Source: Escherichia phage vB_EcoM_ESCO10. Taken from it: a stretch of DNA of 64,000 nt. Below, piece by piece: positions 1 through 52,391 of the stretch (within the stretch, counting starts at the first letter, position 1; each line of letters begins with the position of its first letter). The position numbers and the translations under genes were made by a program. Where the stretch lies: sequence record OM386655.1; one strand, given 5' to 3'. Under the pieces are notes generated by a model. The model was not told the DNA's origin and did not search any database. It worked only from the letters and a program-made list of their open reading frames with translations.

Positions 1-887
<887 letters not shown>

Positions 888-48272: not shown

Positions 48273-51200
48273 ATGGCTACTTTAAAAGCGATACAATTTA
48301 AAAGAAGTAAGACAGCTGGTGCCAAGCCTACTGTAGACCAGTTGGTTGAAGGTGAACTGGCTATTAACTTACGCGACCGTACGATTTATACAAAAACCGA
48401 CCAGAATCAGATTATTGACCTTGGCTTTGCTAAAGGTGGACAGGTTGATGGTGATATTCTCCAGAACGGCACATTTAACCTCAATGGTAATATGTTCGTT
48501 TACGCTGGTAAGTATATTGAATTCCTGCCTAAAACTGCGGGTAATGGCGCCTGGGCAAACCAACATTTAACTAAAGCTCCTATCTTTGCAGATTTAAGTT
48601 CAACTGCCTCAGTATCAGAATATCATCCTCTGATTAAGCAACGTTATAAAGACGGTACTTTTTCTGCTGGTACATTAGTAAGCGAAGGCTCATTTAGAGT
48701 TCATTATATTGATTCTACAGCTCCAGACAATTCTAAACACTGGGTCTTTAATCGAAATGGTAATTTCATCGTAGATTCTGGTAGTATTGAAGTTCGTACC
48801 GGTAATATTTCTGCTTCAGGCAATATTAACTCTGCTAATGGTATTATCACTGGTCCTGAAATTGTTACTAAAAATATTAATTTCAGTACAAAACCATTTA
48901 TAGCTAATGCCAACATTGGATATGATTGGGTTTCTTTACCTACTTGGGTTTATAACCCACCGGCTGATGGTTCTGATAATACTACTAACGGTTTAAACTA
49001 TTTGCGTAAATTGCGTGCATCAAGTGCATCAAGTATTTTCCATGAAATTGCTGATTGTCGAAAAGGCAAGCCACAAGAAATTTCCTGGTGGACCGGTGTA
49101 GGTCCGGCATCTTTCCAATGGGCGTTTGATACCTCTGGGCGTATTACCGCAGGTAAATCTATTTCAGTAGGTCTTCCTGATAACGGGGCAAATGGGCGTT
49201 ATCCTTTAGATTCAGCTATTTCTATTGGTATTGCCATCGGTGATAACGATACAGGTATTAAATGGGTCCGTGACGGTGTTTACGACCTGATGGCCAATGG
49301 TATTTCATCTGCTACTATTTTGAATAACGGTATTAATAGTACTAAAAAATTGATGGTTGGTTATAGCCGAGATTCAGGTTCTACTTGGGATTTCCCGAAT
49401 AATAACCAAGCAATGTTTACTGCGCGTACTGATGTTGATGGCAATAATAACGGCGATGGTCAGACTCATATCGGTTATAGCAGCAATGCTAAAATGTATC
49501 ACTATTTCCGTGGCGCGGGTCGTATGTCCGTTAGTATGGCCGAAGGGCTTATTGTTGAACCAGGAATTTTAGATATTAAAACCGGTTCCAATAGCGTTGC
49601 TATTAGAGCGGACGGAACAATTAACTCCACCCAGCGTATTTCTATGCGTACGGGCTTGTTTTTAAATGGTGATGATAATACTAATGCTTTATCGTTTAAA
49701 GCGCCTTCTGGTGTTGATGGTACTAAAACTATCAATTGGGACGCGGGTATTCGTAACGGTCAAAACAAAAACACTGTAACACTTAAAGCTTGGGGTAATT
49801 CATTTAATGCAGGCGGCGGTAACAGAGAAACTGTATTTGAAGTATCGGATTCACAAGGTTATTATTTTTATGCCCAGCGTACCAATCCGGCCGTTGCCGG
49901 AGGTATAGGACCTGTCAACTTTAAGTTTAACGGAACTATTGAAACAGGTCATATCATAGGCCTTGGTGATATTACTGCTTCCGGTACAGGTTCTTTTGGT
50001 GGCAATGTTACCATGACTAATGGCCTGTTTGTCCAAGGTGGTTCTTCTATTACCGGCCAAGTTAAAATCGGTGGAACAGCTGATGCATTAAGAATTTGGA
50101 ATGCTGAATATGGCGCTATTTTCCGTCGTTCCGAAGATAAGCTTTATATTATTCCAACTCCGCAGAATGCTGGAGAATCAGGTGGTATTTCTAATTTACG
50201 TCCGTTCTACATTACATTAAGTACTGGTCAAGTTTCTATGGACCATGTAGTAGATATCGGCGGTGGTAGATTTAAAGTAGATACAACTGGTACTACGGCT
50301 GGCCAACGTATTACAGTTAATGCAGCAAGCGATGCTGTTGTATTAAATGCCCCTAATCAAGAATCATCCAACTTTATCCAGGGTCGTAAAGCCAATGTTA
50401 CTAAATGGTATCTTGGTATTGGCGATGGTGGTAACGTTGTTCGTATGCACAACTATACATATGCGCACGGTATTGCGTTGAATGCTGATACTGTTGATAT
50501 AACCAAGGCGCTTAAAATTGGTTCCGATATTCGTATTGGTCTTGATGGCAATATTACAGGCAGCACTGCATTAGAAAACTTTAAAAACCTGAACACCACT
50601 TTAAACCGTAAAGTTAATGTCGGAACTTGGTCGGGTGGTGCGGCTGCGGGTTGGTATAAATTTGCTACTGTAACTATGCCTCAAAGTGTGGCTACTGCCC
50701 AATTTAAAATTACTGGCGGTAACGGATATAATGTCAATTCATCGGAACAAGCCACAATTACTGAAATAGTTCTTAGAACTGGTAATAACAACCCTAAGGG
50801 TATTAATGCCACCTTATGGGCGCGCACAGGTAATGGATTTACTAATATAGCAACAATTAATACCTCCGGCGATGACTATGATGTTTACCTATACGTTGGA
50901 ACTTACGCGGACAAACTTATAGTCGAATATGATTATACAGCAAACACCCGTTATATTTCGGTAGTCGGTCTTAATGATGTGAATCAAACCCCAGTCGCGG
51001 AATTACCTACTGGTCACCAGCGCGGACAAGTGTATATGATGTATTCTGATGCTCAGATACCTTATCCGGTGGGTGCTCCGATTCCATGGCCGAGCGATTC
51101 AGTTCCAGCCGGATTTGCTTTAATGGAAGGTCAAACCTTTGATACCGGAGCTTATCCTAAACTAGCTGCAGCTTATCCGTCGGGTACTATTCCGGATATG

Positions 51201-51821
51201 CGTGGACAGACTATTAAAGGTAAACCAAGTGGTCGTGCAGTGTTGAGTGCAGAAGCTGATGGTATTAAGTCTCACAACCATGGCGGCTCTGTTGCGAGTA
51301 CTGATTTAGGTACTAAAAACACCTCATCATTTGATTATGGTACTAAAAACACCTCATCATTTGATTATGGTACTAAAACCAGCAACACAACAGGTAACCA
51401 TAACCATAGCGTTAGTGGCAATACTGGCGCAGCAGGTAATCATCAGCACTCACAGACAGGTCCAAGAGGTCCTAATAATCAACCAACAGGAATATTTCCT
51501 AATGGAGCTACTCAAATTAGTGGAACCCAGGTTGTTTCTTTTGGCATAAGCAACGGTGTTGTGCCTGGTGTAAACCAATATATTGCAAAGTCATCGACAG
51601 AAGGTAACCATACACACTCTTGGTCTGGAACTACAAATACCACCGGTAACCATGCCCACACCGTTGGTATCGGTGCTCATAGTCATTCGGTCGGTATTGG
51701 TGCTCATAGTCATTCGGTTGCAATCGGGTCCCACGGTCATGGTCTTACCATAAATAGTACAGGTAATACAGAAAACACGGTTAAAAACATTGCTTTTAAC
51801 TATATCGTTCGCTTAGCATAA
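48273..51821 (+). CDS. 37: long tail fiber distal subunit gp37 (receptor-binding tip with His-box repeats)
   Basis: 1182 aa; C-terminal G-N-H-x-H-S repeats; followed by gene 38. Confidence 0.9.
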   Translation: MATLKAIQFKRSKTAGAKPTVDQLVEGELAINLRDRTIYTKTDQNQIIDLGFAKGGQVDGDILQNGTFNLNGNMFVYAGKYIEFLPKTAGNGAWANQHLTKAPIFADLSSTASVSEYHPLIKQRYKDGTFSAGTLVSEGSFRVHYIDSTAPDNSKHWVFNRNGNFIVDSGSIEVRTGNISASGNINSANGIITGPEIVTKNINFSTKPFIANANIGYDWVSLPTWVYNPPADGSDNTTNGLNYLRKLRASSASSIFHEIADCRKGKPQEISWWTGVGPASFQWAFDTSGRITAGKSISVGLPDNGANGRYPLDSAISIGIAIGDNDTGIKWVRDGVYDLMANGISSATILNNGINSTKKLMVGYSRDSGSTWDFPNNNQAMFTARTDVDGNNNGDGQTHIGYSSNAKMYHYFRGAGRMSVSMAEGLIVEPGILDIKTGSNSVAIRADGTINSTQRISMRTGLFLNGDDNTNALSFKAPSGVDGTKTINWDAGIRNGQNKNTVTLKAWGNSFNAGGGNRETVFEVSDSQGYYFYAQRTNPAVAGGIGPVNFKFNGTIETGHIIGLGDITASGTGSFGGNVTMTNGLFVQGGSSITGQVKIGGTADALRIWNAEYGAIFRRSEDKLYIIPTPQNAGESGGISNLRPFYITLSTGQVSMDHVVDIGGGRFKVDTTGTTAGQRITVNAASDAVVLNAPNQESSNFIQGRKANVTKWYLGIGDGGNVVRMHNYTYAHGIALNADTVDITKALKIGSDIRIGLDGNITGSTALENFKNLNTTLNRKVNVGTWSGGAAAGWYKFATVTMPQSVATAQFKITGGNGYNVNSSEQATITEIVLRTGNNNPKGINATLWARTGNGFTNIATINTSGDDYDVYLYVGTYADKLIVEYDYTANTRYISVVGLNDVNQTPVAELPTGHQRGQVYMMYSDAQIPYPVGAPIPWPSDSVPAGFALMEGQTFDTGAYPKLAAAYPSGTIPDMRGQTIKGKPSGRAVLSAEADGIKSHNHGGSVASTDLGTKNTSSFDYGTKNTSSFDYGTKTSNTTGNHNHSVSGNTGAAGNHQHSQTGPRGPNNQPTGIFPNGATQISGTQVVSFGISNGVVPGVNQYIAKSSTEGNHTHSWSGTTNTTGNHAHTVGIGAHSHSVGIGAHSHSVAIGSHGHGLTINSTGNTENTVKNIAFNYIVRLA
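51309..51368 (+). repeat. perfect 30-bp tandem duplication inside gene 37
   Basis: ggtactaaaaacacctcatcatttgattat x2 encoding GTKNTSSFDY twice. Confidence 0.9.
51663..51716 (+). repeat. 27-bp near-perfect tandem repeat in gene 37 His-box region
   Basis: two units encoding VGIGAHSHS with two synonymous differences. Confidence 0.8.
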
Positions 51822-51826
51822 GGAGA

Positions 51827-51840
51827 GGGGCTTCGGCCCC
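51827..51840 (+). promoter_or_regulatory. RNA hairpin GGGGC-UUCG-GCCCC between SD and gene 38 start codon (split ribosome-binding site)
   Basis: AAGGAG at 51820-51825, hairpin, AUG at 51849 (23-nt spacing, ~9 nt when folded). Confidence 0.55.
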
Positions 51841-51848
51841 TTCTAAAT

Positions 51849-52391
51849 ATGAAAATCTATCATTTTTATTTCGATACAAAAGAATTTTACAAAGAAGAAA
51901 ATTACAAACCGGTTAAAGGTCTTGGTCTTCCTGCTCATTCAACAATTAAAAAACCTTTAGAACCTAAAGAAGGATACGCAGTTGTATTTGATGAACGTAC
52001 CCAAGACTGGATTTATGAAGAAGACCATCGAGGCAAACGTGCATGGACTTTTAATAAAGAAGAAATTTTTATAAGTGACATTGGAAGTCCGGTTGGTATA
52101 ACTTTTGATGAGCCGGGCGAATTTGATATATGGACAGATGATGGCTGGAAAGAAGATGAAACATATAAACGAGTAATGATTCGCAATCAAAAAATCGAGG
52201 GGTTTTATAAAGAATTCCAGGTATTAAGTAATATGGTTGAAGCCTCAGTCGCCGATAAGAAAGAAAAATTCTATCACCAGAATCTTAAACGTTTCTTTGC
52301 TCTTTTAGAAAAACATGAACACTTGGGTGGTGAATTCCCGGCTTGGCCAGAAAAAGATAAAAAGCCTTGGTATAAGTGCTTTTTCAAATAA
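51849..52391 (+). CDS. 38: gp38 long-tail-fiber assembly chaperone (T4 type)
   Basis: matches T4 gp38 as remembered (MKIYH.YFDTKEFYKEENYKPVKGLGLPAHS...). Confidence 0.85.
   Translation: MKIYHFYFDTKEFYKEENYKPVKGLGLPAHSTIKKPLEPKEGYAVVFDERTQDWIYEEDHRGKRAWTFNKEEIFISDIGSPVGITFDEPGEFDIWTDDGWKEDETYKRVMIRNQKIEGFYKEFQVLSNMVEASVADKKEKFYHQNLKRFFALLEKHEHLGGEFPAWPEKDKKPWYKCFFK

Follow-up and report, generated by a model that had tools for sequence, protein, structure and literature searches.

Probable recent homogenisation of old stem repeats at the end of gp37, the long tail fibre distal subunit of Escherichia phage vB_EcoM_ESCO10

The 3′ end of the long tail fibre gene of Escherichia phage vB_EcoM_ESCO10 contains a 30-bp unit in two identical tandem copies (U1 and U2) and, farther downstream, a 27-bp unit in two nearly identical tandem copies (D1 and D2), which is followed by a diverged third unit (D3). 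Here, we analyzed these repeats in the 64,000-nucleotide stretch of sequence record OM386655.1 in which the gene lies (hereafter, the window) and compared them with the fibre ends of related phages and prophages. The repeats are probably rungs of the fibre stem that are older than the event that made their copies alike, and the copies appear to have been homogenised recently, most likely by short-tract gene conversion or template switching that left the copy number unchanged.

Identification of the gp37 gene

vB_EcoM_ESCO10 is a Dhakavirus obtained from avian caecal content (PMC10269720). Its genome is 171,100 bp long, and the backbone shows 91–95% identity with those of VR5, IME281, and Bp7. 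The 1182-aa product of the gene was an exact look-up match for UPW37967.1, which is annotated as 'hypothetical protein ESCO10_00047'. When this product was compared with PDB by phmmer, its C-terminal 299 aa matched 2xgf_A (E = 6.8e-76) in two stretches that comprise the collar, the stem, and the C-terminus. Pfam detected the gp37 trimerisation region (gp37_trimer; aa 689–767) and a Collar domain (PF07484; aa 934–981), the latter at E = 8.8e-11, which passes the curated cut-off. The Phage_fiber repeat (PF03335) was not called on this gp37 by Pfam, though it is precomputed for many homologues. A gene for a T4-type tail fibre assembly chaperone, gp38, is located downstream and is followed by the holin T gene. 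Four features of fibres of the needle class were found, namely homology with 2XGF, a preceding Collar domain, HxH motifs on two strands, and a downstream gp38 of the T4 type rather than the T2-type gp38 adhesin. Judged by its sequence, the gene is a T4-type gp37, and its end is a mosaic allele, itself new, of a well-known kind.

Table 1 Features of the gp37 region of vB_EcoM_ESCO10 and nearest neighbours of its segments (positions in the window).
Feature	Position	Strand	Evidence or remarks
gp37, long tail fibre distal subunit	48273..51821	+	1182-aa ORF, translation, Pfam, PDB match
Eight-HxH span	51273..51740	+	first His at aa 1001, 1043, 1057 (ascending strand), 1113, 1127, 1136, 1145, 1154 (descending strand)
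Ascending-strand unit U1, GTKNTSSFDY, aa 1013-1022	51309..51338	+	GGTACTAAAAACACCTCATCATTTGATTAT; equivalent to T4 residues 895-904
Ascending-strand unit U2	51339..51368	+	30/30 identity to U1; absent from T4, present in TuIa, VR7, and others
Partial third ascending unit, GTKTS	51369..51383	+	GGTACTAAAACCAGC; carries the perfect period-30 register on for another 10 nt
Variable tip cassette, aa 1060-1112, presumed receptor-contacting	51450..51608	+	alignment, nearest-neighbour scan; T4 limits from PMC6957217
Descending-strand HxH unit D1, VGIGAHSHS, aa 1131-1139	51663..51689	+	GTTGGTATCGGTGCTCATAGTCATTCG
Descending-strand HxH unit D2, VGIGAHSHS, aa 1140-1148	51690..51716	+	GTCGGTATTGGTGCTCATAGTCATTCG
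Third descending unit D3, diverged, VAIGSHGHG	51717..51743	+	kept in all relatives including T4
gp38, T4-type tail fibre assembly chaperone, 180 aa	51849..52391	+	92% identity to T4 gp38
Segment nearest to GRNsp7	to about 50900		93-99%
Segment nearest to TuIa	51105-51239		99%
Segment nearest to VR7	51195-51419		94-97%
Segment nearest to G2469, JM10, and 348Ecol098PP (tip cassette)	51420-51644		91-95%
Segment nearest to VR7	51645-51824		90-99%

Repeat units at the end of gp37

Tandem Repeats Finder (TRF) detected a period-30 array of 2.6 copies at 51302–51378, the fractional number arising because the partial unit GGTACTAAAACCAGC trails U2. The perfect period-30 tract amounts to 70 nt, and a second copy of GGTACTAAAAACACCTCATCATTTGATTAT was expected 0.00 times by chance (100 shuffles). 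A perfect head-to-tail duplication of the 30-bp unit had already been noted in a preliminary description of this DNA, and the sequence, TRF, and a pattern search agreed on it. The sequence and the pattern search likewise bore out the repetition of the 27-bp unit with two changes between D1 and D2, both synonymous (GTT/GTC and ATC/ATT). Both arrays are in frame within 48273..51821, and they were the only arrays detected by TRF in the window apart from those of a collagen-like gene at its start. The 30-bp array had been placed immediately before a 'His-box' region, a term for which we found no use in the literature. However, it does not precede all HxH motifs, being located between the first (SHNH) and the second (NHNH).

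Position of the repeats in the needle and length of gp37

In the needle of T4 gp37, the knob (collar) consists of residues 811–881 and 1010–1026, the stem of residues 882–931 and 960–1009, and the receptor-binding tip of residues 932–959; seven Fe ions are arranged along the needle with HxH motifs as metal ligands (PMC6957217). Our numbering of T4 agreed with that source, H929 and H931 falling within EHSHY. In the alignment, the 10-aa unit corresponded to T4 residues 895–904 and the 9-aa units to residues 984–1000. Both repeats therefore belong to that half of the stem which is nearer the knob, outside residues 932–959, and not in the receptor-binding tip to which they were originally assigned.

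T4 gp37 has seven HxH motifs (at 883, 915, 929, 966, 980, 989, and 998), a number equal to that of the Fe ions, in line with the earlier statement that these motifs bind metal in the T4 fibre (PMC6957217). ESCO10 gp37 has eight, three in the ascending strand and five in the descending strand. These are predicted to be metal-binding sites on the three-fold axis, the eighth being a putative addition to the T4 set.

Translation of the ORF and comparison with T4 gp37 confirmed the reported lengths of 1182 aa and 1026 aa, respectively. MAFFT alignment of the two proteins assigned 118 aa of the net excess of 156 aa to the shaft, N-terminal to the collar, including one block of 72 aa (aa 770–841). 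From the collar to the end, the excess was 38 aa, of which 10 and 9 aa came from the repeats and the remainder from the variable tip cassette; exactly +10 aa and +9 aa were found at the two repeat sites. Since the repeats account for just 19 of the 156 extra residues, they do not explain the greater length of this gp37.

Unit numbers in related fibres

Two U and three D units were present in 21 T-even phages, ESCO10 included. The other members of this set are TH57, moha, TuIa (X55190), VR25, TH54, vB_EQ1, 348Ecol098PP, G2469, C6, AV117, F2, 04086, VR7, JM10, JK42, Ge15, P896, O157 typing phage 3, slur03, and APCEc01. T4, GRNsp7, and G2285 lack one unit on each side. The ascending sequence shared by TuIa, TH57, and moha reads DLGTKTTSSFDY-G[TS]KT[TS]SSFDY-GTKTS, and their descending sequence reads HTVGIGAHTHTVGIGAH[TS]H[TS]VAIGSHGH. 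In the best 120 homologous protein clusters, two 10-aa units were found in 21 and one unit in 98; these clusters are chiefly E. coli and Shigella prophage fibres. About 40% of the homologous fibre ends had the architecture with two U and three D units. The copy number in ESCO10 was not above that of its closest relatives, VR7, 348Ecol098PP, G2469, TuIa, and others having equal numbers. The exact unit and the junction had no match in IMG/VR or among the JGI metagenome contigs. As far as sequence comparison can tell, the repeats are old building blocks of the stem, not new copies.

Coupling of ascending and descending units

Among 87 unique tails, those with one FDY unit always had two [IVLM]G[AS]HxH units, and those with two FDY units always had three. 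A wider sample of 149 unique complete tails was obtained by searching 1.84 billion representative proteins. In this sample, a regex census, whose apparent exceptions were artefacts of diverged motifs, was replaced by motif-free HxH spacings: g1, the spacing from the first to the second HxH past the collar in the ascending strand, and R, the length, in HxH motifs, of the terminal run of the descending strand in which neighbours are exactly 9 apart. A g1 of 32 with an R of 3 was observed in 84 tails and a g1 of 41–42 with an R of 4 in 57 tails, 54 of which had the combination (42,4). The longer combinations were (52,5) in four tails, (62,6) in one, and (73,7) in one. In the two apparent exceptions (69,3), the distal HxH of the ascending strand is absent, but one unit is again accompanied by a run of three. 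The coupling thus held in 149 of 149 unique tails, with between one and five ascending units: for every additional 10-aa unit in its ascending strand, a tail has one additional 9-aa HxH unit in its descending strand. ESCO10, with two ascending units, g1 = 42, and R = 4, belongs to the subclass of two-rung stems of the TuIa/VR7 type. Additionally, three distant fibres that are not T-even have three or four tandem FDY units and three or four IGAHxH units, and a search of IMG/VR with a degenerate pattern for at least three tandem units yielded nothing beyond these three.

The published contacts of T4 (G921–F970 and H929–G964) and the domain limits (882/1009 and 931/960) (PMC6957217) give a sum of paired residue numbers (i+j) of about 1891–1893. 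Residues 895–904 should therefore lie opposite residues 987–997, which correspond to the D units. Covariation and these two published contacts, rather than coordinates, thus suggest that the U and D units are paired at the same axial level. An extra descending HxH unit, that is, a predicted metal site, would then need ten more ascending residues.

Mosaic structure of the gene end

We scanned the gene in 90-nt windows for its nearest neighbours. The nearest neighbour switched every 100–200 nt (Table 1), which indicates a swapped tip cassette flanked by conserved stretches containing the U and D units and the HxH motifs. Motif-mediated cassette swapping at distal fibre loci of T-even phages is a known process, at least as it is presented in the discussion of Tetart et al. 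(1996, 1998) in PMC3157838.

Homogenisation of the copies

The copies U1 and U2 showed no differences in ESCO10, VR7, 348Ecol098PP, and VR25, and 2–7 differences in the other 17 phages of the set. D1 and D2 were identical in vB_EQ1 and 04086, differed at two sites in ESCO10, AV117, and F2, and differed at 3–7 sites elsewhere in the 21 phages. The counts of homogenised pairs, 4/21 for U and 2/21 for D, are higher than the number of independent events, since mosaic tails share segments and the phages are not phylogenetically independent.

The closest U1 or U2 of any other phage in the set differed from the ESCO10 unit at two positions. ESCO10, VR7, and 348Ecol098PP have one common unit type (…ACCTCATCATT…), within which they differ at positions 9 (AAA/AAG), 11 (AAC for Asn/ACC for Thr), and 24 (TTT/TTC). 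Two of these three differences are synonymous, and wherever a phage has one of them, U1 and U2 have it alike. The tails of VR25 and Ge15 are nearly identical, and their D units are the same; U2 of Ge15 has three clustered differences from U1, whereas U2 of VR25 is identical to U1.

The D units of ESCO10 retained the trace of a shorter exchange. The 5′ end of D2 (GTCGGTATT) is of the D2 type, as in VR7, C6, slur03, and TuIa, while its 3′ end (AGTCATTCG) is of the D1 type (VR7 D1, AGCCATTCG; VR7 D2, ACGCACACA). The retention of D2-specific 5′ markers together with a D1-type 3′ end indicates a partial tract and not the duplication of a whole unit. In vB_EQ1 and 04086, D1 equals D2, yet U1 and U2 differ at 7 sites in the former and at 4 in the latter, indicating that the U and D units were homogenised independently, with their numbers remaining coupled.

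Asn is present in U1 only in G2469 and JM10, and a U pair with Asn in both copies was found in ESCO10 alone among 267 proteins and 21 phages. Therefore, replacement of U2 by U1 is the simplest history of this pair. Likeness of copies within a genome, lineage-specific changes in all copies, and a partial tract, three features of concerted evolution by gene conversion, were observed. A literature search for concerted evolution of tail fibres gave nothing relevant. With regard to the recency suggested in the preliminary description, these results support a recent event at the DNA level between the copies. They do not support recent new copies, since the relatives already have two U and three D units.

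Proposed mechanism and alternative explanations

We propose that each chain runs to the tip and back, with 10-aa units (G-T-K-x-T-S-S-F-D-Y) in the ascending strand and, at an equal axial level, 9-aa units (V-G-I-G-A-H-x-H-x) in the descending strand, and that HxH pairs from the three chains coordinate a metal ion on the axis of the fibre. ESCO10, like TuIa, VR7, and many others, has one rung more than T4, its stem containing two full U units and a run of four 9-spaced HxH, with eight HxH in all. U1 would have overwritten U2, taking the Thr-to-Asn change into both copies, and D1 would have overwritten the 3′ part of D2. Such overwriting most likely took place through gene conversion over short tracts, or through template switching from one repeat to its neighbour, in recombination-dependent replication, and the copy number would have stayed the same.

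A turnover of units by slippage is an unlikely but still credible origin of the identical U pair. Either slipped-strand mispairing or unequal crossing-over would have removed U2, with U1 re-duplicated later, or a three-copy state would have contracted, so that the identical pair would be a recent duplication that restored the old number. The perfect 70-nt period-30 tract is a good substrate for slippage, and the existence of natural fibres with 1 to 5 ascending units implies that the copy number has changed in the history of the family. Moreover, the end sequence of the U units would be equal to that left by conversion. However, the uncoupled intermediate expected from such a turnover, one or three U units with a run of four HxH, was found in 0 of 149 unique tails. 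The D2 unit, with a partial tract and its own 5′ markers, also points to conversion, since loss and re-duplication of a whole unit would not yield this structure.

Net new tandem duplications by slippage, lengthening the receptor-binding tip with consequences for host range, were put forward in the preliminary description and are very improbable. T4, with one U unit and one D unit fewer, and the identity or near-identity of the copies agree with such an expansion. Nevertheless, two U and three D units are already present in VR7, the closest phage on both flanks of the tip cassette (94–97% and 90–99%), in which D1 and D2 differ at 7 of 27 nt, and TuIa has an identical layout. Furthermore, the units contribute only the 19 of 156 extra residues mentioned above and are located in the stem, the tip subdomain being excluded. 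Because the repeat units are common to the relatives, there is no evidence of ongoing expansion, and the idea that the tip is expanding by replication slippage is not supported, the excess over T4 being chiefly in the shaft.

There is hardly any likelihood that an assembly or sequencing artefact made the perfect 30-bp duplicate: the reading frame is unbroken, the numbers of units fit the coupling that holds across the family, VR7, VR25, and 348Ecol098PP, which were assembled independently, have perfect U pairs of different sequences, the identical protein UPW37967.1 has been deposited, and a 60-bp tract is, by our reasoning, below the typical read length. Parallel selection that fixed the same substitutions in both copies without DNA exchange is just as implausible, for although the recurrence of Asn at unit position 4 of U1 in G2469, JM10, and APCEc01 implies that this residue is tolerated and may be favoured, selection cannot account for the synonymous Lys (AAA/AAG) and Phe (TTT/TTC) differences common to both copies in each lineage, nor for ten of ten codons being identical in the ESCO10 pair while the relatives vary at synonymous sites.

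Discussion

Our analysis indicates that a phage adhesin gene can carry identical tandem units without having an expanding tip. The ESCO10 repeats are best read as conserved structural rungs whose copies recombination would keep alike. The coupling rule indicates which changes in needle length are likely to fold and may help in engineering or classifying receptor-binding proteins. The conserved repeat and HxH stretches beside the tip cassette appear to behave as recombination patches, consistent with the mosaic structure of the gene end. Neither the ladder rule nor the recombination patches would surprise specialists.

A more speculative extension, to which we give little weight, is that T4-type needles may have a stem built as a modular ladder, lengthening or shortening in matched steps only, 10 aa out and 9 aa plus a metal site back. 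Homogenised rungs might then be prone to matched gain and loss at high frequency, giving heterogeneity of needle length within a population that would tune the reach through LPS or capsule and the host range. Register-shifted double crossovers flanking the tip cassette could be a route to such changes.

Among known systems, T4 gp37 (2XGF; domains D10/D11) resembles ESCO10 gp37 in its collar, two-strand HxH arrangement, conserved C-terminus NTENTVKNIAFNYIVRLA, and T4-type gp38 chaperone. In contrast, ESCO10 gp37 has one more ascending 10-aa unit, one more HxH 9-aa unit, a shaft longer by 118 aa, and an unrelated tip cassette that is longer by about 18 aa. The gp37 proteins of TuIa and VR7 (Gaprivervirus, HM563683) share the stem with two U and three D units, and the U pair of VR7 is also perfect. 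They differ from ESCO10 gp37 in that both U units of the latter have Asn in place of Thr, its D2 has SHS in place of THT, and its tip cassette belongs to a different lineage. The side tail fibres of E. coli and Shigella prophages (lambda Stf-like, with Collar and Phage_fiber) also have a C-terminal needle, which occurs in one-unit and two-unit forms, whereas their N-terminal parts are unrelated and their virion context is another.

Host-range duplications in T4 gene 37 obtained in the laboratory reportedly covered the small adhesin domain and raised the copy number above that of the parent. Like the repeats of ESCO10, these duplications, the subject of Tetart et al. (1996, J Mol Biol 258:726; cited in PMC3157838 and PMC6957217), are small, in-frame, and tandem, are located in distal gp37, and arise by recombination at short conserved motifs; unlike them, the repeats of ESCO10 exclude the tip cassette, and their copy number equals that of the relatives. 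Finally, motif-mediated swapping (Tetart et al. 1998, J Mol Biol 282:543) and the ESCO10 gene end have in common a swapped tip cassette between conserved stretches. The exchange proposed here for the repeats would differ in having occurred between neighbouring units within one gene, whereas motif-mediated swapping takes place between phages.

Mosaic structure of the distal gp37 and its shaft

The distal part of gp37, the distal subunit of the long tail fibre, was a fine-scale mosaic in which the nearest neighbour changed every 100–200 nt, alternating among GRNsp7, vB_EQ1, TuIa, VR7, G2469/JM10/348Ecol098PP, and C6. Identity with TuIa reached 99% in one segment. The biggest single contributor to the length difference between this gp37 and that of T4 was a 72-aa block in the shaft; T4 lacks this block, and TH57 and moha have it. 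The shaft also contained a perfect 9-bp tandem repeat of 2.2 copies, GTGCATCAA.

Coordinates of the features in the window.
Feature	Position (nt)	Strand	gp37 residues
Collagen-like ORF	141-887	+	
Repeat arrays	150-452		
gp37	48273-51821	+	
Tandem repeat GTGCATCAA	49015-49034		
Shaft block	50580-50795		770-841
Mosaic region	50700-51870		
TuIa-like segment	51105-51239		
Hairpin	51825-51842		

Annotation and neighboring features

gp37 was deposited as "hypothetical protein ESCO10_00047" (UPW37967.1); therefore, the public record is under-annotated. The gene is not discussed in the paper describing vB_EcoM_ESCO10 (PMC10269720). A G+C-rich hairpin (GGGGC-TTCG-GCCCC, loop TTCG), located after the gp37 stop codon and before the start of gp38, adjoins an AAGGAG ribosome-binding sequence; in the records for G2469 and G2285, a putative terminator is annotated between the corresponding two genes. 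At the start of the window, a 248-aa ORF encodes collagen-like Gly-X-Y triplets in its N-terminal ca. 115 residues, followed by a non-repetitive C-terminal domain, and TRF detected arrays of period 18/45/90 in this ORF.

Stem units in other phages

In gp37 of phage P896 (L102), both U units, the 10-aa ascending-strand repeats of the needle stem, had GGC, not GGT, as the first codon; in that of phage 04086 (L096), only U2 had GGC. This codon pattern is a further small sign of exchange between the copies. Non-T-even fibres (IMG/VR contigs L085, L086, and L087 and proteins P0169 and P0218) carried 3–5 tandem FDY units, which are repeats of the same kind, and their runs of 9-aa descending-strand IGAHxH units were extended equally to match. 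Therefore, the length of the needle stem is wide-ranging in nature.
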